Counted from the first letter of the stretch, positions 12,403 through 37,974 are shown. The stretch is DNA of 64,000 nt from Planctomycetota bacterium (GCA_038212275.1 JBBQUR010000005.1:1-64000); one strand, 5' to 3'. Notes: generated by a model from the letters alone, not told the origin. A program made the numbers and translations.

Positions 12403-12634
12403 GGCCCGGCCCCGTGCGCGCGATCGGATCGATCGCCGAGCCTTGGCTCTGCTTGCAGCAGCCCCAGGTGATGTCGCGCCCTGCGCTGGCGCGTGTGACC
12501 ACCAGCAGGAAGGCGCCGTGATGCTTGCAGCCTCCGATTCGCCTCGCTGTCGGCCTCAGCGCCGCGCCGGGGCTACCCGGACCGTGCCGATGGCGCTACC
12601 GTGGGAACAGACCCGTTCCGAGGGAGAGATCACC

Positions 12635-13984
12635 ATGCTGAGTGTCCTGTTCGCATGCCTGCTCGCGGTGAGCGCCAGTTCGACCCTGCCGGACGAATCG
12701 AGCGTCGTCGCGACCGATGTCGGTCTCTATCTGGTCCTCAAGGGGCAGCCCGCGCAGCTCGTCCTGACGCCGCCGTTTCTTGGGCTCGCGTCTTTCAATG
12801 AGCCAAGCGTGACCTGGCTCCCGGGGACGGATGATTTCATCCTCACGAGTCGCGGCACCGGGACCACCGGGCGCCTCGTGCGCGTGACGGTCACGGCGTC
12901 GGGCTCGGCCACTTTCGTCGAGCTGACGAACAGCGTGCCGGTCTCCATCGGTCGCGATTTCGCGGATGCCGACTACTCGCTCGGCCTCGACACGCTCTTC
13001 GTGGTCAATCGCAACGAGGGCCTCGTGTGGGCGTGGGCCAAGCCCGGGAGCACCAGCGCCGCTTCGGCCGTCGTCTGGGCTGCGCTCACACCCAGCCAGC
13101 CGATCTCCGTCGCCGTCAACGGCGCCCACTCACCCTTCAGCCTCATCGTCGCGCAACGCACCGACCCGGTCGTGCGCGTCATGAAGTCCGGTGTCACCGT
13201 GCTCAACACCACCATCTCGCCGCAGCAGGTGGCCTGCAACGGGACGACCGGCGAATGGTATGCGGCCGTGACGGGGTCAGGCTTCGTCGGCGTTCCTTTC
13301 AACGGTGTCGGGATCGACTTCAACGCGTCGGGCTTCTGCGGTTCCCCCGCGAAGCAGCCCGAGGACGTGCAGTGGGATCCGGTGGCGCGACGCGCCGTGG
13401 CGCTCGGTGGCGACGGCGCAGGCTGCATCGACAATGCCTTGCCGACCGGAACCAATCACATCGTGCGCCTTCCGCTCGCCGCGAGCGGTGGTCCGCCGAG
13501 CAACAAGCCGGTCCTTCTGACGGCCAACGGGCCGTCCGGCATCGACGGCATCGACGGCGACCTCGCCTACGTGCGCCATGGCGGTGGCGACCTCACATGG
13601 TTCGGCTCGCCCGGCGTCTCGGGCGCAGGGCTCGCGCCCGAAATGGACACGGCGCAGTCCTACGGCGGCGCTCCGGCGATCGGCAAGGCCTTCAGCGTGC
13701 TCGCCAGTCAGGCGCCGCCGAGCGCTCCGGCGACGCTCGTGATCGGCGTGGCGTCCGCGCCGGTGACGGTGCAGGGACAGTTGCTCGTGCCCGCGCTGCA
13801 CCTCCTGGTGCCGTTGATGACCGATGCGAGCGGTGACGCCACGCTGCCGCTCGCGATTCCGAACGACAACAACCTCGTCGGCCTGGTGCTCTACATGCAG
13901 TGGTGGTTCTCCGACACGACGACGCCGCAGGCCGGCGACCTCGTGAGCACGCAGACGGCGATCACCGCCATCGGGCTGAAGTAG
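12635..13984 (+). CDS. Secreted beta-rich protein with shared C-terminal domain
   Basis: Signal peptide MLSVLFACLLAVSA; RBS GGGAG; C-terminal GGAPAIG...TDASGDATLPLAIPNDNNLVGLVLYMQWWFSD. Confidence 0.75.
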   Translation: MLSVLFACLLAVSASSTLPDESSVVATDVGLYLVLKGQPAQLVLTPPFLGLASFNEPSVTWLPGTDDFILTSRGTGTTGRLVRVTVTASGSATFVELTNSVPVSIGRDFADADYSLGLDTLFVVNRNEGLVWAWAKPGSTSAASAVVWAALTPSQPISVAVNGAHSPFSLIVAQRTDPVVRVMKSGVTVLNTTISPQQVACNGTTGEWYAAVTGSGFVGVPFNGVGIDFNASGFCGSPAKQPEDVQWDPVARRAVALGGDGAGCIDNALPTGTNHIVRLPLAASGGPPSNKPVLLTANGPSGIDGIDGDLAYVRHGGGDLTWFGSPGVSGAGLAPEMDTAQSYGGAPAIGKAFSVLASQAPPSAPATLVIGVASAPVTVQGQLLVPALHLLVPLMTDASGDATLPLAIPNDNNLVGLVLYMQWWFSDTTTPQAGDLVSTQTAITAIGLK

Positions 13985-14044: not shown

Positions 14045-15460
14045 ATGCGCATCGTCCTGGCCGTCCACGGTTACCCGCCGGAGCTGGCGGGCGGCACGGA
14101 GCACAGCGTGCAAGCGCTGGCGCGCGGGCTGGCAGGAGCGGGGCACCACGTCGCGGTCATCGCAGGCACGAACCACTACGAGCAGGGTTTCCGCACCAGT
14201 GCGACGACCGATCGCGACCCGGCGAGCGGCGCCAGCTTCCCGGTACACCGCATTCACCGCGGCGACCTCTACTTCGGGCACTGGCAGAAGAGTCGCAGCA
14301 CGCGCGCCAGCCTCGCGTTCGCGGCGTTGCTCGAACAGCTGCGTCCCGACGTGCTGCACGTGCACCACTGGCTGCGCCTTTCCAGCGATCTTGTCGCGCG
14401 CGCCGCCGCCGCTCGCGTGCCCGCCGTCGTCACGCTGCACGACCTGTGGACGACCTGCCTCGTCACCTTCCGCATCCGGCCGGACACGCAGAGCTTCTGC
14501 GAGGCGTCTCTCGCGCCGGATCCATGCCTCGCTTGCGTGGCGCACGTGCCGCCGCGCACGCCGTGGCGCACGTCGCGAGAGCTGGAGCTCGAGCTCCAGC
14601 GCCATCGCGCGGACCTGCAACGCGAACTGCGTCTCGCGCGCATCGTCACGGCCCTCTGCCGCGACCAGGCAGAAACGCTGTCGCGACTCGGACCATGGCC
14701 CTCAGGCACCGCGCCTGCAATCCACGTCCTGCCGCCCGGGAGGGATCTGTCACTGCCGCCGGCGGTGCCGCTTGCCTCGCCCTCCGGCCTGCGCCGTCTG
14801 ATCGTCGGCAGCTGGGGCGGCCTGCACTGGTTGAAGGGCACGGATCTGCTGATCGAAGCACTCAGCCGGCTGCAGCGCGAGGGCGGGCCGGTGGTGGAGT
14901 TGCACCTTGCCGGAAGCGAGGCCGAGACGTCAGTGGTTGCGAAGCTGCGCGCCGCGGCCGCTGGGCTGCGCGTGACCTTTCACGGACCCTTCGGAGCCGG
15001 CGGCCTCCCGGGCCACCCGGTCACGGCCGTACATGCCATGGTCAATGCCACGCGCGCTCACGAAACCTGGGGCCTCGTGCTCGACGAGGCCATCGCCCTG
15101 CGCCTCCCGATGGTGCTCCCGCGCGCGGGAGCTTTTCCCGAACACGTGGGAGAGCACCGGGGCGCGCTGTTCTATCCGCCTGGAGATGCAGGTGCGCTTG
15201 CGGCGAGCCTTGCGCGGCTTGCCACCGAGCCCGACCTGCTCGCGACGCTGCGGGCGCAGCTCCCGCCGCTGCACTCCGTGCTGCCCAGCCTGCGTGAGCA
15301 CGCCGATGCCGTGCTCGCCTGCTACGCGGCAGCATGTTCACAAGGCCCTCCCGACGCTCCTGCATTCGCTGCGGAGCAGGATGCGCAGGCCTCGCGGGCC
15401 GAGGCTGCATGGGATGTCGAACTCTCGCACCGGAGCGCCGAGGAACTGGGACTCGCATGA
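14045..15460 (+). CDS. Glycosyltransferase family 4 (GT-B)
   Basis: HGYPPELAGGTE, PDVLHVHH, VVTLHD, ETWGLVLDEA (Ex7E). Confidence 0.85.
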   Translation: MRIVLAVHGYPPELAGGTEHSVQALARGLAGAGHHVAVIAGTNHYEQGFRTSATTDRDPASGASFPVHRIHRGDLYFGHWQKSRSTRASLAFAALLEQLRPDVLHVHHWLRLSSDLVARAAAARVPAVVTLHDLWTTCLVTFRIRPDTQSFCEASLAPDPCLACVAHVPPRTPWRTSRELELELQRHRADLQRELRLARIVTALCRDQAETLSRLGPWPSGTAPAIHVLPPGRDLSLPPAVPLASPSGLRRLIVGSWGGLHWLKGTDLLIEALSRLQREGGPVVELHLAGSEAETSVVAKLRAAAAGLRVTFHGPFGAGGLPGHPVTAVHAMVNATRAHETWGLVLDEAIALRLPMVLPRAGAFPEHVGEHRGALFYPPGDAGALAASLARLATEPDLLATLRAQLPPLHSVLPSLREHADAVLACYAAACSQGPPDAPAFAAEQDAQASRAEAAWDVELSHRSAEELGLA

Positions 15461-15481: not shown

Positions 15482-16063
15482 CTACCAGCGCTCGCGCGCA
15501 CAAAGCAGCAGCAGCGGCGTGAGCGAGAGTCCGTCCACGATCTCGCCGGCCAGCAGCATGTCGCGCAGCTCGGCGTGTGCGAACCAGCGTATGCCCAGCA
15601 CTTCATTGCGGTCGAAGTCCGTCGACGCGAGCGGCGCCACGTCCGCCTCGAAGAGGTGGAACTCCTGGTTGCCACTGCCGTAGCTGGGAAAGTACTGCTG
15701 TAGCGGGCGCATTGACAAAGCCTGATGGCCCGTCTCCTCTTCCAGCTCGCGCTCGGCGGCTTCGGCAAGGCCCTCGTCGGGTTCCGCGCCGCCCGACGGC
15801 AGGGCCCATACGTGCCGGTCCACGATGAAGCGGTACTGGCGGATGAGCAGGATCTCGCCGGGCCGTCGCGGCACGACGCCCACCGCACCCTTGCGATAGT
15901 CGATCGTGAAATAGGTGGTGATGCCGCGGTCCGGCATGCGCACGCGGCTGCGAAACACCGCGAAATACGGGTTGGAGAGCAGCTCCTCCCGGTCGAGCAC
16001 GTCCCAGCCCTTCTCCTGGGACGAACCGTCGGTGAACTCGTCGGGTGCTGGAGCCATGGGCAT
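15482..16063 (-). CDS. NUDIX hydrolase (ADP-ribose/NDP-sugar pyrophosphatase-like)
   Basis: LIRQYR and Nudix box PSGGAEPDEGLAEAAERELEEETG. Confidence 0.9.
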   Translation of the reverse strand: MPMAPAPDEFTDGSSQEKGWDVLDREELLSNPYFAVFRSRVRMPDRGITTYFTIDYRKGAVGVVPRRPGEILLIRQYRFIVDRHVWALPSGGAEPDEGLAEAAERELEEETGHQALSMRPLQQYFPSYGSGNQEFHLFEADVAPLASTDFDRNEVLGIRWFAHAELRDMLLAGEIVDGLSLTPLLLLCARERW

Positions 16064-16150
16064 TCGGGCCTCGCGCGGGTCGGATGGAACGAGGATAGCG
16101 GACAGCCTCGGGCCTCGTGTCTCGCACCGCACTCCGGCAAGGCAGTTAGG

Positions 16151-17374
16151 ATGTGGTTGATGAGGAGCAGCGGGAGCAGCGACGAGCCTTCGGCGCCGGC
16201 AGCGCGCGCACCGTACCCCGCGGCGTTGCTCGGCTCGTGGCGCGCCGCCGCGGACAGCGCCGTGGCCCGGCACCTGCACGTGGTCGTGCCGGACGTCGCC
16301 CGCTACGAGGTGCACTGCGAGCCCGGCTCGGCATCAAACTTCGGCAGCGCCTACGCCCGGCAGTTCGGCGCCCGCCCGCCCGTGGTGTTGAGCGATCACC
16401 GTGTGCATCGCCTGCACGGCAAGGCCTTCCTGGAGTCGTTCCGCACGGCGGGCCTGCAGCCGCAGCTGCTGCTCGTCCCGGACGGCGAGCGCAGCAAGAA
16501 CCTTGACGCCTTCACCAGGCTGCTCGACCGCCTCGCGGAGCTTGAATGCGATCGCCGCACGGTGCTGGTCAATTTCGGCGGCGGCGTGATTTCGGATCTC
16601 GGCGGTTTCGTGGCTTCGGCTTACATGCGCGGCCTGTCGTACGTGAACGTGCCCACGACGCTGCTGGCGCAGCTCGACGCGAGCATCGGCGGCAAGGTCG
16701 CGGTGAACACCGCGCGTGCCAAGAATCTCATCGGTGCCTTCCATCACCCGGAGCTGGTCACCTGCGATCCGGCCCTGCTTGCGACGCTCTCCGGGCGCGA
16801 CATGCGCAGCGGACTTGCCGAGGGCATCAAGGTGGCGATCATCGCCAGCCCCGAGCTGTTCGCGTGGATCGAGACGCACCGGCACGAGGTGCTGGCGGGC
16901 GACCCTGTGTCGCTCACAGGGCTTGTCGCCGAGGCCGCGCGTCTGAAACTGGCGCTGCTGGAGCACGATCCCTACGAGGCCGATCTGCGCCGGCCGCTCA
17001 ACTTCGGGCACACCATCGGGCATCCCGTGGAGACGGAGCTGGGCTACCGCGGCATCCGCCACGGCGAAGCGGTCGCCATCGGCATGGGCGTGGCCACGCT
17101 CGTCGCGCGCCGGCGGGGGCTCATCGACTCCGCCGACAGCGGCCGGATCCTGGACCTGTTGACCGCGTGCGGGCTGCTGTGGTCCGGCGAAGCGCTGCGC
17201 CCCGACGGCATCCTGGAACACCTGCGGACGGTGCGCCTCATCCGCGGCCGGGCGCTGCACTTCGTCCTGCCGCGGGCTCTCGGGGAGGTGCTCATCACCG
17301 ACGACGTCTCCTCCGCCGACCTCGTGCGCGGCTTCGAGGACTACGCCTGCCTCGTCCGCGAGCGCCTGTCATGA
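16151..17374 (+). CDS. Sugar-phosphate cyclase of the 3-dehydroquinate synthase superfamily (2-epi-valiolone-synthase-like)
   Basis: GGGVISDLGG, YMRG, PTTLLAQLDASIGGK, KNLIGAF, AEGIK, LNFGHTIGH, HGEAV; C-terminal DKK of AroB replaced by VRLIRG. Confidence 0.8.
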   Translation: MWLMRSSGSSDEPSAPAARAPYPAALLGSWRAAADSAVARHLHVVVPDVARYEVHCEPGSASNFGSAYARQFGARPPVVLSDHRVHRLHGKAFLESFRTAGLQPQLLLVPDGERSKNLDAFTRLLDRLAELECDRRTVLVNFGGGVISDLGGFVASAYMRGLSYVNVPTTLLAQLDASIGGKVAVNTARAKNLIGAFHHPELVTCDPALLATLSGRDMRSGLAEGIKVAIIASPELFAWIETHRHEVLAGDPVSLTGLVAEAARLKLALLEHDPYEADLRRPLNFGHTIGHPVETELGYRGIRHGEAVAIGMGVATLVARRRGLIDSADSGRILDLLTACGLLWSGEALRPDGILEHLRTVRLIRGRALHFVLPRALGEVLITDDVSSADLVRGFEDYACLVRERLS

Positions 17375-17859
17375 GCGACGCTCGCGCCAGCGACGCTGCG
17401 CCGCGCGTCGTGCATCTGGACGAGCTGCCGTTGCAGGACGTGGTGGCGCACGGCGGTGACGGACGCATCGGCTTCCGGCGCGTGCTCGGACAGAGCGCCC
17501 GCGATGCGCAGCACACCGCGGGCGCCTGGCACTTCGTGGACTACGCCGTGCTGCCGCCGGGCGCAAGTATCGGCCTGCATGCGCACGGCGAGAACGAAGA
17601 GCTTTACCTCGTCCTGCAAGGCGAAGGCCTGATGCAGCTCGGCGATCGCAGCGTGCGCGTGCGTGCTGGACACCTCATCGTGAATCCGCCGGGCGGCACG
17701 CACGGCCTGCGCAACGACGGCAACGTGCCGCTGCGCCTGTTCGTCGTCGAGGTGCCGCTGGCCGTGCCGCCTCATGCGGCACTGGCCGTGCCACTGGATG
17801 CGCCACTGGCCGTGCCGCCGGCAGGCCCCGCAGCACCTTTCTCGACACCTGCGCGTTGA
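17371..17859 (+). CDS. Cupin-domain protein
   Basis: IGLHAHGENEELYLVL and PGGTHGLRN; ATGA overlap with the cyclase. Confidence 0.85.
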   Translation: MSDARASDAAPRVVHLDELPLQDVVAHGGDGRIGFRRVLGQSARDAQHTAGAWHFVDYAVLPPGASIGLHAHGENEELYLVLQGEGLMQLGDRSVRVRAGHLIVNPPGGTHGLRNDGNVPLRLFVVEVPLAVPPHAALAVPLDAPLAVPPAGPAAPFSTPAR

Positions 17860-18623
17860 ACGGCCAGGCCGAGGCGCCGCTGCTCGACGACGTCACCGCC
17901 CTGGTGATGGCCGGCGGTCTCGGCACGCGCATGGCCGGCAGCCAGCCCTCGCTGCCGAAGCCTCTCGTGCGCGTCGGCGGCCACGCGCTGCTCGATCTCT
18001 CGCTGCGCCGGCTTCTGGCTGCGGGCGTGCGGGACATTCGCCTCGCCCTGCGCCACGAGGCTGCGGCGATCGAGGCGCACGTGCGTGCGCTGCCCGACGT
18101 CCCCGCCGGATGCGTGCGCTTCGTCGTGGAGCCGCAGCCGCTGGGCACCATCGGCGCCGTGTCGCTGCTTGCCGACGTGCAGCGCACGCTGCTCGTCACC
18201 AACGGCGACCTGCTGTCGGGGATCGACCTGCGCGCGCTCGGCGCCTTCCATCGCCGACGTGGCGCGGCGCTCAGCATCGCCACGCACGACGAGCACCATC
18301 GGCTGCGGTTGGGAGAGGTGGTCTCCGGGCCCGACGACGCCGTGATCGAATACGTCGAGAAGCCGGTCAAGAGCTACCGCATCTCGTCCGGAACCTACGT
18401 CATGCAGCCTGAGGTCATGGCGCTGGCGGCGCCCGGCGAATGGCTTGGCTTCCCGGAGCTCGCGCGGCGCGCGATCGATGCAGGCCTCAGTGTGCTGGAG
18501 TGCTTTCACCAGGAGCCGTGGCTGGACGTCAACGACGAGGACGACCTGCAAGCCGCCGAAGCGCTGCTGGCCAACGATCCTGCGGCCTTTGGCCTGACGC
18601 ACCCCGCGTTGCGACACCCATGA
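17856..18623 (+). CDS. Sugar-phosphate nucleotidyltransferase
   Basis: MAGGLGTRM, PKPLV, EPQPLGTIGA, NGDLL, YVEKP, WLDV; TTGA overlap. Confidence 0.9.
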   Translation: MNGQAEAPLLDDVTALVMAGGLGTRMAGSQPSLPKPLVRVGGHALLDLSLRRLLAAGVRDIRLALRHEAAAIEAHVRALPDVPAGCVRFVVEPQPLGTIGAVSLLADVQRTLLVTNGDLLSGIDLRALGAFHRRRGAALSIATHDEHHRLRLGEVVSGPDDAVIEYVEKPVKSYRISSGTYVMQPEVMALAAPGEWLGFPELARRAIDAGLSVLECFHQEPWLDVNDEDDLQAAEALLANDPAAFGLTHPALRHP

Positions 18624-20773
18624 GCTCCGCGCACTGGCTCGGCCTGGACATCGGCGCCACCAAGCTGCTCGCGCTCGCGCTTGACGAGCGCGGCGCCGTC
18701 CTGGCGTGCGAGACCGCTCCGACGCGTCGCGAGCGCGGTCCCGACGACGTCCTCTCGCGCGCCGCGGACCTGGCGCAGCAGGTCTCCGCACGTGCGGGAG
18801 GCTTGCCGGCCGGCGCGGGCGTCGGTGTTGCCGGCCTCGTGGATCACGCCACCGGGCGCGTGCTGAGTTCGATCATGCTCCCGGGCTGGGATGACTGGCC
18901 GCTGGCCGAGCGTCTCGCCGCGCGGCTCGGCATCCCGTGCCTCGCGGACAACGACGCGACGGCGGCGGGATGGGGCGAGTTCGTCGCGCTGGGTTCGCCG
19001 CCCGATCTCGACCTCGTGCTGCTCACGGTCGGGACCGGTATCGGGGGCGCGGCGATCCTCGGCGGCCGACTGCACCGTGGCGCGTCGGAAACGGCGGGGG
19101 AGTTCGGCAACATGAGCATCCACTGGCAGGGCGAGACCTGCTGGTGCGGCTCGCGTGGCTGCCTCAACATGCTGGCCTCCGGCTCGGCGATGGCGCGTCG
19201 TGCCGCGGAGCTTGGTTGCGTGCCGGCCGTCGCGGCCGTCGGCGGCGCGATGGGCACCCGGAGCGCCACGGAAGCACGCACGGCGGATCGCGGCGCAACG
19301 CTCACGCTGCACGACGTGGCCGCCGCCGCGGCCGCAGGCGATTGGGCCGCGCACGCCGCGATCGACGAGGGCGCGCGCGCTCTGGGCGCCGGCCTCGCGA
19401 ACATCGTGAACACCTGGAATCCGTCGCGCATCTCCCTGTGCGGCGGCGTGCTCGCGCTGGGCGACGGCTGGCTGAGCAGCGTGCGCGAGGAAGCCGGTCG
19501 CCGCGCGCTCGCCGTGCCCTTCGCCCGCGTGAGCATCGGACCCGCCGTGCACGGCGCCAGCACCGGCGCCTTCGGTGCCGCCTGCCTGGCGCAACGGGCC
19601 TTCGCGCCCGTCCCGGCGGAAAGCTCCCGACACGCGGCCGGTCCTGCGGGCGGCGGAATGCACGTCCCCTCGAAGGACTACCGCGCGCAATACGCCGCGC
19701 TGATGCCCGAGCTGCTGCCGCTGCTGGAGCGCACGCTGCTGGACGACGAGCCCGTGCTCGGCCGCGCCGTGACGGAGTTCGAAGCTGCCTTCGCGGCGTA
19801 CTGCGGCGTCGCGCATGCCATCGGCGTCGGCTCGGGCTTCGACGCGCTAGTCCTCGCGCTGCGCGTGCTGGGCGTCGGCCCGGGCGATGAAGTGATCACC
19901 GCCGCGAACACTTTCACCGGAACGGTCACGGCCATCCTTGACGCGGGTGCGCGCCCCGTGCTCGTGGATCCCGACGTGCGCACGCTGAACCTTTCCTTGG
20001 ACGGTGTGCGCGCGGCGCTGACGCCGCGCACGAAGCTCGTCCTCCCGGTGCACCTCTACGGCCGCCTTGCGCCGATGGCCGGGCTGCTCGCGCTGTGCGC
20101 GGACGCGGGCGTTCCGATCCTCGAAGATGCGGCTCAGGCGCACGGAGCGCGCGCGGGGGGCCGCCGGGCGGGCGCCTTCGGTCGACTCGGCGCCTTTAGC
20201 TTTCATCCGAGCAAGAACCTGGGAGCCTTCGGCGACGGCGGCGCGATCACCACCGACGACGCCGCGCTCGCGACCACGCTGCGCGAACTGCGCCACCTGG
20301 GCAAGCGCGACAAGCACCACTTCGCGCACGTGGCGCCCAATACCAAGCTGGACACGCTGCAGGCCGCGCTGCTGCTGCTGAAGCTGCCCAGGCTGGATGC
20401 TCAGAACGCAAGGCGCCGCGCGCTGGCGGCCCGATATCGCGCCGGGCTGTCGGACTGTGAGGGCCTGCTGCTGCCGGAGGATCCGGGCGACGAGTCGCAC
20501 GTCTGGCACCAGTACGTGGTGCGCAGCGCGCGTCGCGACGCGCTGCGTGCGGAGTTGAAGGCCGCCGGCATCCAGGCGGGCCTGCACTATCCCGTCGCGC
20601 CGCACGAGCAGCCGCTGGGCGTGCCGCTCGTGGTTCCGGCCCGCGGCCTGCCCGTGGCCGAGGCGTCCGCGCGCAGCGTGCTGTCTCTGCCCATCGCACC
20701 TGAGCTGAGCGATGCGCAGATCGGCATGGTCATCGAGGCGGTGCGCGCTGCGCATCACGCGCGGCCGTCGTGA
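18620..20773 (+). CDS. ROK-family kinase fused to DegT/DnrJ/EryC1/StrS aminotransferase
   Basis: ROK: GLDIGATK, DNDA, VGTGIGG, CWCGSRGCL; aminotransferase from ~19658: EDAAQAHG, FSFHPSKNLGAFGDGG; no stop between; ATGA overlap. Confidence 0.9.
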   Translation: MSSAHWLGLDIGATKLLALALDERGAVLACETAPTRRERGPDDVLSRAADLAQQVSARAGGLPAGAGVGVAGLVDHATGRVLSSIMLPGWDDWPLAERLAARLGIPCLADNDATAAGWGEFVALGSPPDLDLVLLTVGTGIGGAAILGGRLHRGASETAGEFGNMSIHWQGETCWCGSRGCLNMLASGSAMARRAAELGCVPAVAAVGGAMGTRSATEARTADRGATLTLHDVAAAAAAGDWAAHAAIDEGARALGAGLANIVNTWNPSRISLCGGVLALGDGWLSSVREEAGRRALAVPFARVSIGPAVHGASTGAFGAACLAQRAFAPVPAESSRHAAGPAGGGMHVPSKDYRAQYAALMPELLPLLERTLLDDEPVLGRAVTEFEAAFAAYCGVAHAIGVGSGFDALVLALRVLGVGPGDEVITAANTFTGTVTAILDAGARPVLVDPDVRTLNLSLDGVRAALTPRTKLVLPVHLYGRLAPMAGLLALCADAGVPILEDAAQAHGARAGGRRAGAFGRLGAFSFHPSKNLGAFGDGGAITTDDAALATTLRELRHLGKRDKHHFAHVAPNTKLDTLQAALLLLKLPRLDAQNARRRALAARYRAGLSDCEGLLLPEDPGDESHVWHQYVVRSARRDALRAELKAAGIQAGLHYPVAPHEQPLGVPLVVPARGLPVAEASARSVLSLPIAPELSDAQIGMVIEAVRAAHHARPS

Positions 20774-23103
20774 CGCGGGCAGCCGCGATACGTGCTTCAA
20801 TTGCCTGCACTCCGGCTGTGATCGCGGTGCTGGGCGGCGGCAGCGCGTTCACGCCGGCGCTGGCGCTGGCGCTCGCCGAGGCCGCCTCGAGCCTGCCGCC
20901 GCTGCTGATCCGCCTGCATGGCCGCGACGCTTCGCGCACGGCGGACGTGGCCGCGTGCTGCGAGCGCCTCGCGCGCGGGGCCGGCGCGTCGCAGCATTAC
21001 GAGTCCTGCCCGTCGCTGGAAGTTGCGGCCCGCGGCGCGGCGGTCGTCGTGAACCAGATGCGCGTCGGCGGCTGGGCCGGACGCACGCACGACGAGCGCT
21101 TCCCGCTCGCCCACGGCCTGCCCGGCGACGAGACCATCGGCCCGGGGGGGGTGGCCTCCGCGCTGCGCACCCTGCCCGTCGTGCTGCGGGCCGCGCACGT
21201 CTGCGCCTCGGCGGCTCCCGGCTGCTGGTTCGTGAACCTCAGCAACCCGATGGGCATCGTGCTGGCCGCGCTCGCGGACGTCCCCGGCGTGCGCGCACTT
21301 GGCCTGTGCGAGCTGCCCGGCGAGACGCTTCGGCGCGCGCTCGCCCTGCTTCCGGAAGATCGCGCCCCCGTGCAGGTGGACTACCTTGGTCTCAACCATC
21401 AGGGCTGGTTCACACGCATCGAGCGCGGCGGCCGCGACTTGCTGCCCGACGTCGCGGCCGCGCTGGCGCGCGCCGAGGCGACGCACGCCCCGGAGGCGGA
21501 GTTCTTCGGCGTGGACGCGGAGCTCGTCGAGATGCGGCACGCGCTGCCGCTGCCCTACATGCGGCTCTACGAGCACCGCGAGCGCGAGGTCGCCGCGTTG
21601 CGTGCGCGCCACGTCGCGCGTGGGGACGAGTTGCGCGCACTGTCCGACGCGCTGCACGCCGCCTGCGCGGCCGGCACCGAGGTGGGCGACGCCGGACTGC
21701 GTGCGCTGCTCGCTCGTCGCCGCACGAGCTGGCTTCCGGACGCCCTCGTGCCGGCGCTCGCGGCGCTGCTCGGCGGGCCGCCCGCGGAGTTGTATGTGTC
21801 GCAGCCGAACCGAGGACACATCGCCGCGCTGCCGGCCGAGGCGATCGTCGAACAGCGCTGCCTCGTGGATGGGGAGGGCGCCCGCGCACTGCCCTGGCTT
21901 CCTGCGCCGTTGTCCGACCCTGCGGACGACGCGCGCCAGGCGGCGCGCCTGGAGCTGCTGCACCGTATTGCGCGCTTCGAGGCTGAGGCCTGTCGCGCCG
22001 CCTGCGCCGCCGATCCGGAAAGCGCGCGCTCGGCGGCGCTGCGGGCGCTGGCAGAGCATCCCTTCGACATCGCGCCGGCGACTGCGCAGGCCATGCTTGG
22101 CGACCTCTTCGCGCCGCTGCAGGGCGCGGGCCCTGCCGTCGCTTGCAACAGCGCGGCGCTGGATGCGTTGGCCGACAGCGACGTGGAGCAACGGCTCATG
22201 GCGTCCGTACGCGGAGGGCAGCTGTCCGCAGCAGCGCTTCGCACGGCGCTGCCGTCCTTCCCGCTCAAGCTGCAGCTCCAGACGTCCAGTCCGTGCAATG
22301 CGAGCTGCGTCATGTGCCCGTGGCCCGACACGCGCAGCACGCAGCCTCAAGGCCTCATGTCGGAGGAACTCTTCGACCGCATCGTGGCGCAGCTCGCCGG
22401 GCGCGGCGTCCTGCGCACCAGCCTCTTCCTCATGAACGAACCGCTGCTCGACCGGCGCCTCGAGCGTCTCACGGCGCGCCTCAAGCAGCGCGTGCCGGAG
22501 ACGACCGCGCTCATCTTCACCAACGGCAGCGGGCTCAGTGCGGCGCGCGCTCTCGCACTTGCAGACGCCGGAATGGACGAGATCAACGTGTCGGTCGTCG
22601 GCTTCGACCGCGAGAGCTACGCGCAGATCATGCGCGACATCGACTACGACGTCGTGCTGTCCCACCTCGAGGCGGTCGGCAGCCTGGCGACCGCCGGGCG
22701 ACTCGGCCGGATGGCGGTGCGCGTCGTGGGCCTGCAGTTCGAGCGCGCGCTCGAGGGTCTGGAAGCCTTCCGCGAACGAGTCGGACTCCCGGTCTTCCTC
22801 AAGCCGGTCAGCAACCGGGCCGGCCTGGTGGACCTCGACGAGCTGCATCCGACGACGGCGCGCGCCGCACGCTTTTCCGCGTGCCAGCGCCCTTTCGTGA
22901 AGGCCTACGTGCTGTACAACGGCGACCTCGTACTGTGCAACTGCGACTGGGAACGCACGACCGTCATCGGCAACCTCGCCGAGCGGAGCCTGGAGGACCT
23001 GTGGACCGATCGACGCCTGATGGCCATCCGCGAGCAGCATTGCAGCGGCGAGCTCGAACGCCATTCGCTCTGCGCCCGCTGCGACTACCCATGGCTTGCG
23101 TGA
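20770..23103 (+). CDS. GH4 (6-phospho-beta-glucosidase-like) fused to radical SAM/SPASM domain
   Basis: GH4: LGGGSAFTP, QMRVGG, DETIGPGG, NLSNP, GLCELP, GLNH; radical SAM: CNASCVMC; SPASM/twitch: CQRPF...LCNCD...IGNL...CARC; GTGA overlap. Confidence 0.88.
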   Translation: MTRAAAIRASIACTPAVIAVLGGGSAFTPALALALAEAASSLPPLLIRLHGRDASRTADVAACCERLARGAGASQHYESCPSLEVAARGAAVVVNQMRVGGWAGRTHDERFPLAHGLPGDETIGPGGVASALRTLPVVLRAAHVCASAAPGCWFVNLSNPMGIVLAALADVPGVRALGLCELPGETLRRALALLPEDRAPVQVDYLGLNHQGWFTRIERGGRDLLPDVAAALARAEATHAPEAEFFGVDAELVEMRHALPLPYMRLYEHREREVAALRARHVARGDELRALSDALHAACAAGTEVGDAGLRALLARRRTSWLPDALVPALAALLGGPPAELYVSQPNRGHIAALPAEAIVEQRCLVDGEGARALPWLPAPLSDPADDARQAARLELLHRIARFEAEACRAACAADPESARSAALRALAEHPFDIAPATAQAMLGDLFAPLQGAGPAVACNSAALDALADSDVEQRLMASVRGGQLSAAALRTALPSFPLKLQLQTSSPCNASCVMCPWPDTRSTQPQGLMSEELFDRIVAQLAGRGVLRTSLFLMNEPLLDRRLERLTARLKQRVPETTALIFTNGSGLSAARALALADAGMDEINVSVVGFDRESYAQIMRDIDYDVVLSHLEAVGSLATAGRLGRMAVRVVGLQFERALEGLEAFRERVGLPVFLKPVSNRAGLVDLDELHPTTARAARFSACQRPFVKAYVLYNGDLVLCNCDWERTTVIGNLAERSLEDLWTDRRLMAIREQHCSGELERHSLCARCDYPWLA

Positions 23104-23179
23104 CCGGGCCGGCCGCGCGGTGCCGTCGCGAACGGTCGGGCGTGAACGACCGGTTCGGCGAGAACGAGACGAGGTGCGC

Positions 23180-24160
23180 ATGAAACTCTCGGTCTGCCCG
23201 CAACCGCTCTATCGACTGGGTCTTGAGGGCGCGCTGGACGAGATCGTGAAGCTCGGGCTCACGGCGCTGGAGCTGCCGGTCGATGGGCGCAGCCCGCTCG
23301 TCTCGCTCGACACGCTGCTCGCGGGCGGCCGCGGGCCGGGCAGCGCTGCGGCGCTGAGCAGCGAGCTGCGCGCGCGCGGCCTGTCCCTCTCCGCGATCTC
23401 CAATCATCAGGAGGGGCAGCTTCTGCTCGGCCCTTACCAGCGCGACACGGACGCAATCTGCGCGGGCGATGCCGCACGCAAGGCTGCATTCGCGCGCGAG
23501 CGGCTGTTGCAGAGCGCACGTCTCGCGTCCGAGCTGCAGGTGCCCGTGCTCGTCGGCTTCGTCGGTTGCGAAGACTGGAGCCGGTTCTTCCCGTGGCCCG
23601 ACGCCCAGGGCTGGGAGTCGATGCAGCCGCGCTTCACCGAGGTCGTCGGCGGTCTGCTCGACGACCTCGAGCGGCTCGGCGTGAGCTTCGCGCAGGAACC
23701 GCACCCGCGGCAGATCGTCTACAACACGGAGACGGCGCTGCAGTCCGTCGCCTGGCTGGGCGGGCACAGACGCTGGGGCTTCAATCTGGATGCCGGCAAT
23801 CTGCTGCTGGCCGGATGCGACCCGGTGGTCTTCGCGCAGGAGCTTGGCGCGCGCGTGCTGCACGTTCACGCCAAGGATGCCGAGCTGGTCGCGCACAATG
23901 CACGTCGTTCGGGACTGCTCGCGCACGGCGACTGGGATCGCAGCGACCGCGGCTTCCGCTTCCGCATCCCCGGCTGGGGTGACGTGTCGTGGCGACGCCT
24001 GCTCTCCGAGCTGCAGCTGGGCGGGTATTCCGGCTGGCTGGCCATCGAGCACGAGGATCCCGTCTTCGACGCACTGGACGGACTGACCAAGGCCATCGCG
24101 GCGCTGAAGCCTCTGCTTCCCGATGGTCCGCGTCCCGACGCCAGGCAGCGCTGGTGGTAG
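23180..24160 (+). CDS. Sugar phosphate isomerase/epimerase (xylose-isomerase-like TIM barrel)
   Basis: FAQEPHP, GFNLDAGNL, HVHAKD, FRIPGWGDVSW, AIEHED; RBS GAGG. Confidence 0.85.
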   Translation: MKLSVCPQPLYRLGLEGALDEIVKLGLTALELPVDGRSPLVSLDTLLAGGRGPGSAAALSSELRARGLSLSAISNHQEGQLLLGPYQRDTDAICAGDAARKAAFARERLLQSARLASELQVPVLVGFVGCEDWSRFFPWPDAQGWESMQPRFTEVVGGLLDDLERLGVSFAQEPHPRQIVYNTETALQSVAWLGGHRRWGFNLDAGNLLLAGCDPVVFAQELGARVLHVHAKDAELVAHNARRSGLLAHGDWDRSDRGFRFRIPGWGDVSWRRLLSELQLGGYSGWLAIEHEDPVFDALDGLTKAIAALKPLLPDGPRPDARQRWW

Positions 24161-25317
24161 GCGAGGCGCGCGAGGCTGGCTCATGGTCCGTGCGTGACGG
24201 ACGCGTCCCGCGTCGCGTCGGCCTCGCGGCGCCGCCCGCGTGCGACTACCTGCCGTCGCTGATTCTGCCCGACCTGGCGCGAGCCCGGCTGCTGGCGCGC
24301 GCTGCGCAGTGGGTCGATGTCGTGGGCGTGGCGCACGCCGGGGCGCCAGACCGCGCACGAGGCGCAGCGCCGGAGGGACCGGTGCTGGTGCACGTCGACC
24401 TGGGGGCGCAGGGATTCCTGGCTGACGAGACGGCGGCGGTGTTCGCAGCCGAGCACTGCGACGAGGTGTTCGTGCTGGGCGAGCCGCAGCTGCACGACGC
24501 GTTCGGGATGCTGGTCGCCGCGCTGCGTGCGCGCGGCCTGCGCATCGCGCACGCGGCGCCGGACGAGGGCGCCCTGGCCGCGCTGGCCTCGTGGTGGCAG
24601 CGTTGCGGCGGCAGCCCGCCTGCCACCGTGAACGCCAGCGCGCCTGACGCCGCGCCGACGGACGCGCCGATGGCCGCAACGGGAGGCGTGCCGGCGCACG
24701 TTCGCCCCTGGCCCGAGCTGCTGTTGACCCGAGCGGACGAGGCCGTGCCCGCGGCACACGGCATCGTCTTCGAGGAGCAGCCCGACGGTAGCCTGCTGCG
24801 TCGGAGCCCGGGGCCCGCAGGCTGCGTGCGCGCCGAGGTCGATGTGATCCACGTGCACACGTCGGAGCAATGGACCGAAGCCGCGCTTCGAACAGTCGCC
24901 CCGACGGACCTCGTGGCCCTGCGGCTGGGCGCGGAGGACGCGGAGTCGGCCTCGACGTCGGCGGCGATCGCGCGGATGGCCGCGTTGCGGGCGCGCTTCG
25001 GACCGGCGCGCGTGCGCCTCGCCGTCGACCGCGTGTCTCTGACGACCGATGCGCGATGCGGCGGCGCGCCGTGGGCCGCACGCTTGCGGCTCGATGGTGG
25101 CAGCACCCTGAGCCGCGTGCTGGCCGGTGTGCCTGGCCACGCGCCGACCGATACGCTGACCGACGCGACCCGTGGCGAGCCGACTCGGGCGCAGCGTCGC
25201 CAGCTTGCCGCCGCGCTCGCCTGGCAGGCGCTGGGCGTCGACCCGCTCGAGGAGATCTACGCAGGCAATGCGCTGCCGGATCGCAACGCGGCCATGCTCG
25301 TGAACATCGTGCCGTGA
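24154..25317 (+). CDS. Hypothetical protein within the cyclitol operon
   Basis: Long ORF overlapping both neighbours (start inside the epimerase stop region, GTGA overlap downstream); no recognised motif. Confidence 0.55.
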   Translation: MVGEAREAGSWSVRDGRVPRRVGLAAPPACDYLPSLILPDLARARLLARAAQWVDVVGVAHAGAPDRARGAAPEGPVLVHVDLGAQGFLADETAAVFAAEHCDEVFVLGEPQLHDAFGMLVAALRARGLRIAHAAPDEGALAALASWWQRCGGSPPATVNASAPDAAPTDAPMAATGGVPAHVRPWPELLLTRADEAVPAAHGIVFEEQPDGSLLRRSPGPAGCVRAEVDVIHVHTSEQWTEAALRTVAPTDLVALRLGAEDAESASTSAAIARMAALRARFGPARVRLAVDRVSLTTDARCGGAPWAARLRLDGGSTLSRVLAGVPGHAPTDTLTDATRGEPTRAQRRQLAAALAWQALGVDPLEEIYAGNALPDRNAAMLVNIVP

Positions 25318-27686
25318 TCGAAGAGACGGCGCCCGCGCAGGCCTTGCTGTTGCGTGTCTTTCCGGAACTGGAGGCGCTGGTGTCGCCCGGATGCGCGACG
25401 CTCAAGGACGCCCTCGGGCCGCTGCTGCACCTCGCTGCGCCCGGGGACACGCTCGTGATCGAGGATGGCCGTGCGCGCGTGGCACCGCTCGATGGCGTCA
25501 AGCCCGTCCCGCACGTCGGTCTGCACTGGTTGCTGCCGCTGTTTTCCGGTGACGATCTTGCGTCTCGGCTGCGCGAGGCGCTGGCGACGATCCGCACCGA
25601 CGCGTGGGGCTTCCGCTGCGCAGGCCTGCTGCCGATCTTCGTTTCGAGCGATGCGCGCCTGCACCCGGCGTGCTGGGGAGTGCTGCCGTCCCACGATCCA
25701 CCTGCCGCGTGGCGCGCGCTGACGCGCGACCTCGTCCGCGAACTCTGCCCGGACAGAAGCCTGCTCTGGCGGGCGCAGGAGCACGCGGCCCTCGCGGGCG
25801 TCGTGACGCGGGACGACGTGGACACGGTCGAACGCATGCGACGTGCGCTGCACGAGAGCGGCCGCCCCCGGCTCATCGCGGTGTGCGGCATCGACGGCGC
25901 GGGGAAGTCGGCACACGTCGAGGCCCTGAAGTTGCACTGCACGACGCGCGGGCTGGTCTGCACGACGCACAAGCTGTTCCGTCACGGCGTGTTTCACGAG
26001 ACCGTGACGGATCTCACGCGCCTGTGCGCGGGCGACCGCGCGCTGCACCTGTGGCGCCTGCAACGGCTCGTCAAGGCGCAGGACACGCTGCGCTGCTGGC
26101 ACGAGGAGGTGCTGCCGCGACTGCCCGACGTGGACGTCGCGCTGTTCGACCGCTACGTCTTCACGCACCACGCGGAGGCGGCTGGGCGTCTGCACGACGA
26201 TGCGCACACGCGCGTGCTGCTCGCCTCGCTGCCCGACCCGGACCACGTCGTGCTCCTCGACGTGCCCGTGGAGCTGGCGCTGGAGCGCATCGGTGAGCGC
26301 ACCGCGCGGACGGTGGACGAAAATCCCGTCATGCTGGGCCGCTATCGGCACGCCCTGCTCGACATGGCGGACCGACGTGGTTGGCTCGTGCTGGATGGAC
26401 GCGCGCCGTTCGCGGAGAACACCCGGGCGATCCGCGAGCACCTCGAGGCTTCATTGCGCGCATGCGCCGGGCGCAGCGTGTGCGACGAGGAAGCCCGCGC
26501 ACCGAGTGCCTCACCGTTCGCGCCGGACGGCGAGATGTCGGCGATGGCGATGCCGGGGACGGCTGTGCCGGCAACGGAGGCGCCGGCGATGGCGATGCCG
26601 GTGATGCGGGATGTGCAACTCGCGCCTGCCATCGGGCGCCAGAGAGCCGGGGAAGGGCGCCGGGTCGTTCGGCTGCACGTCGACCCGGCCGTGAGTGACT
26701 GTGCAAACTTGGTGCGGGGCACGCCGCTGCTGCTGCCGACGTCAGGCGAGCTGGCCGCACGCGATCAGCTGCTCGCAGCCTCGCGCCAGGGCCTGCTGCC
26801 GACCGAAGTCGCGATGCACCTCCACGCGTGGGACATCGTCCAGCAGGTGCGCACGGCGTGCGAGCGAGTGCGCGGCCACGACGCGCCGGAGCACGGCACA
26901 CCGGGAGATGATGCGCCCTTCGTCATCCCGTTCTGGCCACCGGCGCTGTTCGCAGCGGCAGGCGTGACGTGGCATGCGTGGCCCGAACTCGAGCGCGTGC
27001 TGCTCGCGCGTCCCGGTGCGCCGGCCGACCGGGCGCGGGCCGCGCTGCTGCGCGTGACCTTCGCCTGCGCTGGTCCCGAGGATGTCGAACGTGCTGCGGC
27101 GCGCGTCCTGTCGTGCGAGCTGAGTTCCGCGGGCCAGGCTTCCGGCGCCGCGTCTCTGGAACAGCTCTCGCGGCTGGTGCTCGTGTCGTCGCCGACGGCC
27201 GGGGTTGCGCCTCCCGCGGGAGGCCTTCCCTTCGCGGGCGTGACGGCGGGCGGTTTCCTCCTGCGCGACGGCCGCGTGCTGCTCGAGCGCCGACCACCGG
27301 ATGCACGGCTCGCGCCCGGTGTCTGGGACAGTCCCGGCGGCAAGGCACATCCCGACGAGCGGCCGCTGGAGACGTTGCGTCGTGAGCTCCACGAGGAGCT
27401 CGGCATCGAGGTGACGGGCGCGCGCCTCGTGGCGATTCTGGACGAGGCCGTTGATCTGCCGGCCGACGCCGCGGCCGGTGAGCGCGCGGCCGGTGAGCTC
27501 GCAGGCGGCACCTGGCGTCACCATCATTTTGAAGTCACGTCGTGGAGGGGCGAGGTCGCGGCGCGCGAGGGTCAGGCGCTGATGTGGCACGGCATTCAGG
27601 CCGCCGCCGCGTTGCCGGACATGCACCCGCTCACGGCCTACGCGATGGCTGCGCTGCTCGCCCCGCGCACGGCATCGCCAGCCTGA
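25314..27686 (+). CDS. Multidomain protein: unknown N-domain + thymidylate-kinase-like domain + C-terminal NUDIX
   Basis: IAVCGIDGAGKS P-loop and LFDRY (TMK motif); Nudix box PGGKAHPDERPLETLRRELHEELG; GTGA overlap. Confidence 0.8.
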   Translation: MIEETAPAQALLLRVFPELEALVSPGCATLKDALGPLLHLAAPGDTLVIEDGRARVAPLDGVKPVPHVGLHWLLPLFSGDDLASRLREALATIRTDAWGFRCAGLLPIFVSSDARLHPACWGVLPSHDPPAAWRALTRDLVRELCPDRSLLWRAQEHAALAGVVTRDDVDTVERMRRALHESGRPRLIAVCGIDGAGKSAHVEALKLHCTTRGLVCTTHKLFRHGVFHETVTDLTRLCAGDRALHLWRLQRLVKAQDTLRCWHEEVLPRLPDVDVALFDRYVFTHHAEAAGRLHDDAHTRVLLASLPDPDHVVLLDVPVELALERIGERTARTVDENPVMLGRYRHALLDMADRRGWLVLDGRAPFAENTRAIREHLEASLRACAGRSVCDEEARAPSASPFAPDGEMSAMAMPGTAVPATEAPAMAMPVMRDVQLAPAIGRQRAGEGRRVVRLHVDPAVSDCANLVRGTPLLLPTSGELAARDQLLAASRQGLLPTEVAMHLHAWDIVQQVRTACERVRGHDAPEHGTPGDDAPFVIPFWPPALFAAAGVTWHAWPELERVLLARPGAPADRARAALLRVTFACAGPEDVERAAARVLSCELSSAGQASGAASLEQLSRLVLVSSPTAGVAPPAGGLPFAGVTAGGFLLRDGRVLLERRPPDARLAPGVWDSPGGKAHPDERPLETLRRELHEELGIEVTGARLVAILDEAVDLPADAAAGERAAGELAGGTWRHHHFEVTSWRGEVAAREGQALMWHGIQAAAALPDMHPLTAYAMAALLAPRTASPA

Positions 27687-32966: not shown

Positions 32967-35696
<2,730 letters not shown>

Positions 35697-35759
35697 GGGT
35701 GCCCGCCTGATGGAGTCGCGGTGCGCGACGTCCGAACGCTCAGGATAAGGCAGCGAGCA

Positions 35760-37907: not shown

Positions 37908-37974
37908 GTCGGGCGGCAGCGTAGCGAGTCGGGCAGCCGAACGTGAGCGTCGTGGCAGCGGGTGCGCCGAGCTT

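Follow-up and report, generated by a model that had tools for sequence, protein, structure and literature searches.

To our knowledge, the enzymes of glycoside hydrolase family 4 (GH4), which act by an unusual redox-elimination mechanism, are known solely as catabolic glycosidases. Among the radical S-adenosylmethionine (SAM) alcohol dehydrogenases, BtrN is the type example, and few of its relatives have been studied. Here we analyse a stretch of 64,000 nucleotides from a Planctomycetota bacterium (GCA_038212275.1 JBBQUR010000005.1:1-64000; hereafter the window), in which a single open reading frame (ORF) joins a GH4 half to a BtrN-like radical SAM half, and report the architecture of the protein, the families to which its parts belong, the conserved gene set around it and the recurrence of the fusion in other lineages. 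We consider it rather probable that the frame arose in evolution, by a true fusion of two translationally coupled neighbours within a conserved accessory cluster, that this cluster of about 12 genes makes an amino-sugar or amino-cyclitol glycoside, and that the two halves of the protein are autonomous. Each half belongs to a known superfamily (GH4; BtrN-like twitch radical SAM); the architecture is rare, and the cluster appears to be undescribed.

GH4 enzymes carry out oxidation, elimination, hydration and reduction in a single active site on 6-phospho-glycosides, as set out in the available portion of PMC10628242. The same portion describes a stepwise counterpart in A. tumefaciens (GlycDH, O-glycoside beta-eliminase and 2-hydroxy-3-keto-glucal hydratase), in which a separate oxidant gives a 3-keto sugar and TIM-barrel Mn enzymes perform the elimination and the hydration. 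Excerpts of PMC9012708 and PMC10337720 cover both the reaction and the Cys4 auxiliary cluster of BtrN, which is the 2-deoxy-scyllo-inosamine dehydrogenase in the butirosin pathway. According to the former excerpt, the twitch domain binds one auxiliary [4Fe-4S] cluster through four Cys ligands, as opposed to the two clusters of a SPASM domain.

Architecture of the fused protein

The frame runs uninterrupted from 20770 to 23103 on the plus strand and encodes 777 amino acids, with a GTG start that overlaps the stop of the upstream gene (ORF listing). The start used for the database protein P0001 lies 16 codons further 3' and gives 761 amino acids. The G+C content at third codon positions over the ORF is 0.88, and all four Pfam domains of the 777-residue product exceed their gathering scores. 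The ORF and its parts are:

20770..23103, plus strand: fused GH4 / radical SAM-twitch ORF, 777 aa (Pfam; AlphaFold2 model)
20821..21318, plus strand: GH4 N-terminal Rossmann (NAD-binding) domain, residues 18-183 (Glyco_hydro_4, PF02056, 1.6e-28)
21382..22035, plus strand: GH4 C-terminal domain, residues 205-422 (Glyco_hydro_4C, PF11975, 2.2e-20; Foldseek)
22120..22146, plus strand: low-confidence linker, residues 451-459 (predicted local distance difference test, pLDDT, <50)
22150..22248, plus strand: helical N-terminal extension of the radical SAM protein, residues 461-493 (orthologue alignment; model)
22294..22677, plus strand: radical SAM core, residues 509-636 (PF04055, 3.4e-14)
22294-22317, plus strand: CX3CX2C of the radical SAM core, residues 509-516 (C509, C513, C516)
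22882..23085, plus strand: twitch (truncated SPASM) domain, residues 705-772 (SPASM PF13186, 1.9e-10; aligned to the BtrN tail)

Against solved structures, residues 1-477 matched GH4 6-phospho-alpha/beta-glucosidases over nearly their full length (6dux, 5.6e-36; 5c3m, 5e-35; also 1s6y and 1u8x), the match to 6dux spanning residues 18-374. The Pfam scores (PF02056, 99.9 bits with a cut-off of 23.2; PF11975, 74 bits with a cut-off of 24.1) correspond to the two-domain GH4 fold, and Foldseek returned target-normalised template modelling (TM) scores of 0.83-0.88 to the GH4 6-phospho-glucosidases 1s6y, 5c3m and 1up4. The motifs GGGS, DETIGPGG, NLSNP and GLCELP lie in the N-terminal Rossmann domain and GLNHQGW and LPLPYMRLY in the C-terminal domain. 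In an alignment of the 38-member subfamily, G22, G23, D120, E121, N159, P160, C180-E181-L182-P183 and N209-H210 are invariant. The NAD-binding motif LGGGSAFTP (21-29) aligns to the GGGS of 6dux and 5c3m, with S25 present in at least 90% of the 38 homologues; the same level of conservation is seen for Y263, which is aligned to a Tyr of 6dux. C180 of GLCELP and H210 of GLNHQGW align with the Cys and His of nicDmP/glNH in 6dux and glCnvP/glNH in 5c3m, and from the GlvA and BglT literature we take these two residues to be metal ligands. Y263, within P-x-x-Y-x-x-Y, is presumably the catalytic base and the residue after the Cys presumably the acid/base. Judged by its residues, the GH4 half looks catalytically intact. 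It reached no NCBIfam equivalog (best 121 bits, cut-off 486), which places it in a GH4 subfamily lacking an assigned specificity.

For the C-terminal 297 residues the best match among solved structures was BtrN (4m7t, 2.9e-15), followed by PqqE (2.2e-3), BlsE (3.9e-3) and SkfB (1.5e-2). The BtrN alignment takes in both the core and the Cys-rich tail, in two stretches with HMMER i-Evalues of 5e-7 and 7e-5, and the structural match to 4m7t by Foldseek has an E-value of 1e-10 and a TM score of 0.74. The core scored 53.8 bits with PF04055 (cut-off 29.5). Exactly seven cysteines are invariant in 30 homologues: C509, C513 and C516 of the core, and C705, C723, C768 and C771 of the tail, where the last four align with tail cysteines of BtrN. 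The tail of the fused protein holds cysteines at 705, 723, 725, 758, 768 and 771, of which C725 and C758 vary among homologues. The seven-Cys SPASM motif with CX2CX5CX3C was not found in the tail in this alignment. A two-cluster SPASM domain is thus ruled out by the four conserved tail cysteines, the Pfam SPASM match reflecting the shared first half of the domain. No NCBIfam equivalog was reached by this half either (best 64 bits, cut-off 400). The cluster's radical SAM orthologues carry an N-terminal extension of about 35 residues, helical and with a D-x2-T-E-G-x-R-E type motif, which neither BtrN nor the more distant homologues possess (alignment columns 19-60); in the fused protein it corresponds to residues 461-493, modelled as three helices with block pLDDT values of 83-96.

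An AlphaFold2 model of the fused protein (53-row alignment) had a mean pLDDT of 92.8 and a predicted TM score (pTM) of 0.70. Both domains exceed 90, and residues 451-459 form the sole segment with a pLDDT below 50; this low-confidence linker between two well-folded domains suggests that the halves are autonomous. When Foldseek was run with the model, GH4 structures ranked top and the first non-GH4 entry was BtrN 4m7t. Two-chain complex prediction with the GH4 part and the radical SAM part gave 0.00 in both runs, which we count neither for nor against binding.

These results agree in most respects with an earlier interpretation made from the sequence without database searches (the sequence-only reading). 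The GH4 motifs that it listed are all present (GGGSAFTP 22-29, DETIGPGG 120-127, GLCELP 178-183, GLNHQGW 207-213), as is the in-frame CxxxCxxC, here CNASCVMC at 509-516. It had also brought in BtrN-type radical SAM enzymes, as cyclitol dehydrogenases, and BtrN is the structure that gave the best sequence match in the PDB and the first non-GH4 fold match. Its description of the tail as SPASM/twitch holds for a twitch domain with a single auxiliary cluster and fails for a full SPASM domain, given four invariant tail cysteines and no CX2CX5CX3C.

Arrangement in related loci and origin of the fusion

Related loci were collected by a pattern scan with one genome per species, which gave 18, and their neighbouring genes were sought by tblastn with the cluster proteins of the window. 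Fourteen carry labels of the Planctomycetota lineage, among them the complete genome of L014; one is a Gemmatimonadota metagenome-assembled genome (MAG), one an Acidobacteriota MAG, and two are labelled "bacterium". GH4 and radical SAM are separate genes in 17 of the 18. They are adjacent on the same strand in 15 (1 fused, 14 separate), a NUDIX gene of the NudE-like type stands between them in L016 and L017, and L003 has them on opposite strands. Two more distant genomes of the same taxonomic order, L030 and L031, carry the same gene set rearranged, with GH4 between the aminotransferase and a TIM-barrel gene and the radical SAM gene between an NTP-transferase-NUDIX ORF and the cyclase.

In the 14 adjacent separate pairs, for which the start codons are inferred choices, the radical SAM start overlaps the GH4 stop by 4 nt in eight, by 1 nt in two and by 14 nt in one, and follows it after a gap of 3-58 nt in three. 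The 4-nt overlaps read ATGA or GTGA, so that a single-base change suffices to fuse the genes. In the window, the place homologous to this overlap is at about residues 460-463 (22147-22158). No ATG or GTG is found there, codons 460-463 being AAC AGC GCG GCG, and the flanking residues have diverged.

Fused proteins are few. A search of 5.8 billion proteins found three, namely that of the window, P0002 (743 aa) and P0003 (785 aa), and the same three were returned whether the search words were drawn from the GH4 part or from the radical SAM part. The latter two are about 51% identical to the window's protein and also lack a Met at the homologous junction position. In an exhaustive scan of 1.84 billion representatives, one listed representative (P0002) covers both halves. 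When the phylum was sampled evenly (401 genomes), matches at E <= 1e-50 came from 7, with the fused form only in the window's own genome, and 15 genomes of the same family gave no orthologue-level match, only weak ones to the radical SAM part (best 2.1e-12). The cluster is accessory, rare and patchy, and is seen mostly in Planctomycetota MAGs.

In a tree of concatenated GH4 and radical SAM sequences (22 rows), the fused proteins are each placed beside unfused ones: L005 is the partner of the window (89/92) and L018 that of L004 (84/90), and P0003 sits within a 95/95 clade of unfused loci. A tree in which the three fused forms are forced together is worse by 47.8 log-likelihood units (p-AU 0.0043), and the minimum number of state changes is three; the approximately unbiased (AU) test thus rejects a single origin of the fusion. 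Other combinations involving related domains occur, with the radical SAM domain fused to NUDIX (P0048) or to GT4 glycosyltransferase domains (P0077, P0093, P0128; GT4-GT4-rSAM, GT-rSAM) and the GH4 domain to a BadF/BcrAD-type kinase (P0091) or to GT2 (P0125). Recurrence of the GH4-radical SAM fusion implies that both enzymes act in the same pathway and that their 1:1 expression is tolerated.

Could the reading frame instead result from a single-base indel at the overlapping stop and start of two genes, in a MAG of 73% GC? One erroneous base would be enough where the separate genes typically overlap by 4 nt, and at this GC content alternative frames stay open over long stretches. The cluster of this genome moreover contains three in-frame fusions, two of them unique among the compared loci (ROK-DegT, 0/16; Tmk-NUDIX, 0/15; GH4-radical SAM, 1/18), a number that could hint at indel errors, and at the ROK-DegT junction a Met, as a putative ancestral start, is retained about 13 residues before the aminotransferase Pfam match. 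The evidence at the GH4-radical SAM junction argues otherwise. A Logan contig of run X1, built by a different assembler, is identical over 21700-22700 with a word depth of 26.7 and no indel listed. The junction is also covered without a difference, over 22122-22290, by a contig of another sample, X2. As X1 is probably the sample from which the window derives, and X2 belongs to the same study, this support is only partly independent. A fresh indel error would keep the start codon, and its loss, with diverged flanks, argues for a natural fusion, as do the two further fused proteins in other lineages, one of them reported by two sources. We therefore regard an artefact as highly improbable, and the GH4-radical SAM fusion looks natural and evolved.

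The sequence-only reading had itself named two ways in which it might fail, an assembly artefact, and homologues that are always separate and unlinked to cyclases. As far as can be told, neither has come about: the X1 and X2 contigs agree, the start codon is lost and the AU test points to repeated fusion, three fused proteins exist, and a cyclase related to 3-dehydroquinate synthase (DHQS) accompanies the pair in 15 of 18 loci. Its statement that no characterised fusion of this kind is known also stands, in that none characterised or annotated turned up beside the three proteins in the searched databases. Literature searches (whole-word for BtrN), which mostly left subscription journals outside their coverage, returned nothing combining BtrN, "sugar phosphate cyclase" or "radical SAM dehydrogenase" with GH4.

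The surrounding gene cluster

The fused gene lies in a run of genes on the plus strand, with one NUDIX gene on the minus strand:

14045..15460, plus strand: GT4 glycosyltransferase (Pfam)
15482..16315, minus strand: NUDIX hydrolase "a" (NudE-like); translation probably begins at a later point of the ORF
16295..17374, plus strand: DHQS-like sugar-phosphate cyclase; approximate start
17371..17859, plus strand: Cupin_2 protein, 162 aa (Pfam PF07883, 3.2e-16)
17856..18623, plus strand: sugar-1-phosphate nucleotidyltransferase (family matches)
18620..20773, plus strand: ROK sugar kinase fused in frame to a DegT-family aminotransferase (ORF and family matches)
23096..24160, plus strand: xylose-isomerase-like TIM barrel; directly downstream of the radical SAM gene in 18/18 loci
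24154..25317, plus strand: conserved protein without a Pfam family; tblastn matches in 8/18 loci
25320..27686, plus strand: N-terminal domain without a family, Tmk-like P-loop kinase and MutT-like NUDIX in one ORF, 788 aa

Across the 18 related loci, the TIM barrel was found in all, the aminotransferase, the ROK kinase and the Tmk-like kinase in 16 each, the MutT-like NUDIX in 15, the cyclase in 15, GT4 in or beside the cluster in 15, the nucleotidyltransferase (NTP transferase) in 14 and the NudE-like NUDIX in 5. The three loci without a cyclase are contigs that end before its position. The sequence-only reading had placed the fused protein in a biosynthetic, cyclase-linked setting, which this distribution bears out.

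The cyclase is a paralogue of the genome's second aroB-like gene. Its PDB matches are far better for true DHQS (2.6e-62) than for 2-deoxy-scyllo-inosose (DOI) synthase 2d2x (4.3e-33), and it narrowly reaches the aroB model (308 bits, cut-off 305). It retains GGK..N, AE.IK, RxxLNxGHTxGH and HGEA, with a conserved R-x-x-R in place of the DKK of the housekeeping copy. The Cupin_2 gene, whose product has the His/Glu pattern of a metal site, sits between the cyclase, with whose stop it overlaps by 4 nt, and the NTP transferase; tblastx found it in all 10 loci tested, at 57-65% identity. The aminotransferase matched DesV (6.5e-90), Gln:scyllo-inositol transaminase (5.6e-82), QdtB (1.2e-74) and WbpE (~1e-72) in the PDB, and the DOI aminotransferases 2c7t (1.8e-34) and 5w70 at about 1e-34 to 1e-36. 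Matches of the ROK kinase include the beta-glucoside kinase BglK (2.4e-14). For the TIM barrel the matches were 2zds, an uncharacterised Streptomyces protein (4.3e-23), 8ro4, the 2-hydroxy-3-keto-glucal hydratase (1.6e-13), and IolE (4.6e-6).

Several observations concern single neighbours. The ROK-DegT frame contains no stop, none of 16 related loci is fused likewise, and a Met precedes the aminotransferase domain as a putative former start; this fusion is either young or an error, and is less certain than that of GH4 and radical SAM. In the ORF at 25320-27686 the middle part between the Tmk-like kinase and NUDIX is poorly conserved, and Tmk and NUDIX share one frame in 0 of 15 loci (stop-to-stop test). 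The protein at 24154-25317 had no Pfam family at E <= 0.1, and its ESM Atlas matches were to unnamed clusters with scores <=0.84. In L014 (7326-7784), about 460 nt separate the cyclase from the ROK kinase and there is no tblastn match to the NTP transferase; in that genome a nucleotidyltransferase may be encoded elsewhere or be dispensable.

On the upstream side, a large ORF before GT4 (12404-13984, plus strand) had no Pfam family at E <= 0.1, and its C-terminal residues (about 110) gave weak tblastn matches beside the cluster in L010 and L015. On the same strand, shortly ahead of the cluster, 11455-12402 (plus) encodes a MerR-family regulator with B12-binding domains, a domain set that we take to be that of light-responsive CarH-type repressors. 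Further away, 32967-38015 (minus strand) holds two large alpha-amylase-family genes with carbohydrate-binding module CBM48 (branching-enzyme-like and isoamylase-like), unrelated to the cluster.

Proposed function and alternative readings

What follows on substrates, reaction order and product is inferred. By analogy with BtrN, the radical SAM half would use the SAM-derived 5'-deoxyadenosyl radical to take the carbinol hydrogen from an intermediate that is either a sugar or a cyclitol, and the electron would leave via the single Cys4 auxiliary [4Fe-4S] cluster to give a ketone. This ketone could go to the aminotransferase (DesV/QdtB/inosose-type) whose gene lies just upstream, to the TIM barrel (keto-glucal-hydratase/IolE-like) whose gene lies just downstream, or to both. 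The GH4 half, with tightly bound NAD+ and a divalent metal, would act on an intermediate that may be phosphorylated by the ROK kinase or nucleotide-activated, oxidising it transiently at C3, deprotonating C2 and expelling a substituent by beta-elimination. All recognisable enzymes of the cluster would then serve keto-sugar or keto-cyclitol chemistry or sugar activation. Secondary alcohols may be oxidised by two routes, by GH4 with bound NAD+ and by the BtrN-like radical route; the hydratase/dehydratase-like TIM barrel would act on enone or keto intermediates and the C3-type transaminase would aminate; the kinase, the nucleotidyltransferase, the NUDIX hydrolases and the cupin could handle phosphates and nucleotides or isomerise; the cyclase would supply a carbocycle and GT4 enzymes would do the coupling. 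The two halves would be autonomous catalysts of consecutive or parallel keto-sugar steps on a flexible tether, and their fusion, through loss of the stop/start overlap, would provide co-expression and proximity but no new reaction.

A tighter relation is conceivable, in which the 3-keto product of the radical SAM half is passed to the GH4 site for beta-elimination, so that the fusion or a tight complex would be required and GH4 would have no redox cycle of its own. Same-strand adjacency in 15 of 18 loci, usually with a stop/start overlap, and at least three independent fusion changes fit this picture. The helical N-terminal extension of the radical SAM protein, absent from BtrN, could be a docking element, and pathways that first oxidise and then use a distinct beta-eliminase are established (PMC10628242). 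The pair is nevertheless separated by NUDIX in L016 and L017, divided between strands in L003 and apart in L030 and L031, and loci of this kind speak against an obligate physical association. The radical SAM domain is elsewhere fused to NUDIX or GT4 domains instead, the linker is predicted to be disordered with a pTM of just 0.70, and the GH4 half keeps its NAD-binding glycines and all core motifs, which argues for its own redox cycle. We consider obligate coupling unlikely, and the mechanistic coupling through fusion that the sequence-only reading had proposed is not supported, the genes being separate in 17 of 18 loci. The dehydration, transglycosylation or pro-drug release that it suggested for GH4 would be candidate reactions.

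The presence of a cyclase, a DegT-family aminotransferase and a GT4 beside a protein whose closest solved relative is BtrN recalls 2-deoxystreptamine-type aminoglycoside biosynthesis, where BtrC is the cyclase, BtrS the aminotransferase and BtrM the glycosyltransferase; the radical SAM half would then be an orthologue of 2-deoxy-scyllo-inosamine dehydrogenase. Gln:scyllo-inositol transaminase as the second-best PDB match of the aminotransferase is in line with this. A DOI-synthase-type cyclase and a DOI aminotransferase, as the BtrC/BtrS/BtrN set would have, are nonetheless not what the cluster encodes, the cyclase being far nearer DHQS and the aminotransferase far nearer DesV by the E-values given above. 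Similarity to BtrN is low, and GH4, the TIM barrel, the cupin, Tmk and two NUDIX genes would be left without a role. We thus judge such a pathway unlikely. In a catabolic cluster, the ROK kinase would phosphorylate an (aminocyclitol) glycoside and GH4 would cleave it, with oxidation by radical SAM, deamination by the aminotransferase and dehydration by the IolE-like TIM barrel to follow. Every solved GH4 relative is a catabolic 6-phospho-glycosidase, BglK is among the ROK kinase matches, a kinase-GH4 fusion exists elsewhere (P0091), and both the keto-glucal hydratase and IolE, which the TIM barrel resembles, are degradative. The conserved sugar-phosphate cyclase, nucleotidyltransferase and one or two GT4 genes are anabolic, on the other hand, and no transporter or phosphotransferase system component was seen among the conserved genes in a search that used the window's cluster proteins only and was not exhaustive; a catabolic role is very unlikely in our view.

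The reading that we favour, an evolved fusion of two autonomous enzymes of a biosynthetic cluster, has its own weak points in addition to the number of fusions and the shared provenance of the junction contigs mentioned above. We found no precedent for a biosynthetic GH4, canonical members being catabolic hydrolases. The residue after the metal-binding Cys is an invariant Glu (E181), compared with Asp in 6dux, Asn in 5c3m and His among other solved GH4 enzymes, so that the chemistry of this subfamily may differ. The cyclase is closest to true DHQS, and a BtrC/BtrS/BtrN-like route has therefore not simply been transplanted. Finally, BtrN-like twitch enzymes include non-dehydrogenases such as the decarboxylase BlsE, a weak match here (3.9e-3), and the term dehydrogenase is applied by analogy.

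A more far-reaching version is offered tentatively, as possible: that these roughly 12 genes form an undescribed pathway with the first non-catabolic GH4 beside a BtrN-like dehydrogenase, a keto-glucal-hydratase-like TIM barrel and a C3-type aminotransferase, that the product belongs to a new class of amino-carbasugar or aminocyclitol glycosides built on a carbocycle from the DHQS-like cyclase, and that the recurrent fusion reflects a real functional partnership. The fusion serves chiefly as a "Rosetta stone" that ties both enzymes to one pathway; it points to an unexplored pathway and not to new chemistry by the fusion itself, and its interest lies mainly in the orphan pathway and a possibly anabolic GH4. 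For natural-product and radical SAM enzymologists, the conserved neighbours of GH4 and radical SAM (a cyclase, a transaminase, sugar-activating enzymes and glycosyltransferases) offer a testable entry into planctomycetal secondary or envelope metabolism. The record for L014 is of a complete genome and names a strain, and genetics may be feasible if the strain is obtainable.

Comparison with known systems

BtrN (4M7T/4M7S) and the window's protein have the same fold, in which a radical SAM core is followed by a twitch domain whose single auxiliary [4Fe-4S] cluster has four Cys ligands; each is encoded in a gene cluster that also specifies a DegT-family aminotransferase and a cyclase. The differences are a low similarity (2.9e-15), the additional helical extension of about 35 residues and the GH4 fusion, an Asn (MNEPLL) in the position of the Gly of YGEPLL in BtrN, and a cyclase and an aminotransferase that are not of the BtrC/BtrS type. 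The GH4 6-phospho-glycosidases (AglB 6DUX, Gan4C 5C3M, BglT 1UP6, GlvA 1U8X) are matched in both domains (5.6e-36, TM 0.79-0.88), and GGGS, DET-GPGG, NP, GLC-x-P, GLNH and P-Y-x-x-Y are all kept. The window's GH4 differs in forming a distinct subfamily, 22-27% identical to the solved enzymes, in lying in an anabolic-looking cluster and not in a sugar-uptake operon, and in being fused to radical SAM.

The routes for C3-amination of NDP-hexoses (DesV, QdtB, WbpE) and for kanosamine provide the closest aminotransferases (6.5e-90 to 1e-72), with a nucleotidyltransferase and a small cupin alongside. Cupin ketoisomerases pair with QdtB-type enzymes. In the window's cluster no 4,6-dehydratase was seen, a cyclase is present, and the oxidants are GH4 and radical SAM in place of a short-chain dehydrogenase/reductase or a Gfo/Idh/MocA enzyme. 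Biosynthesis of 3-amino-5-hydroxybenzoic acid through aminoshikimate likewise has a DHQS-like cyclase and functional analogues of the ROK kinase, the aminotransferase, the NTP transferase and NUDIX. We did not adopt a reading along these lines (kanosamine plus an amino-dehydroquinate synthase), which gives no role to radical SAM or GT4; no gene resembling 3-deoxy-D-arabino-heptulosonate 7-phosphate synthase was found in the conserved set by tblastn with the window's cluster proteins only.

The 3-keto-glycoside pathway of A. tumefaciens, finally, shares the stepwise logic proposed here, and the TIM barrel that always follows the radical SAM gene resembles its hydratase 8ro4 (1.6e-13). That pathway is degradative and uses a flavin or NAD dehydrogenase, whereas in the window's cluster oxidation would fall to the radical SAM enzyme, which is accompanied by a transaminase, a cyclase and glycosyltransferases.

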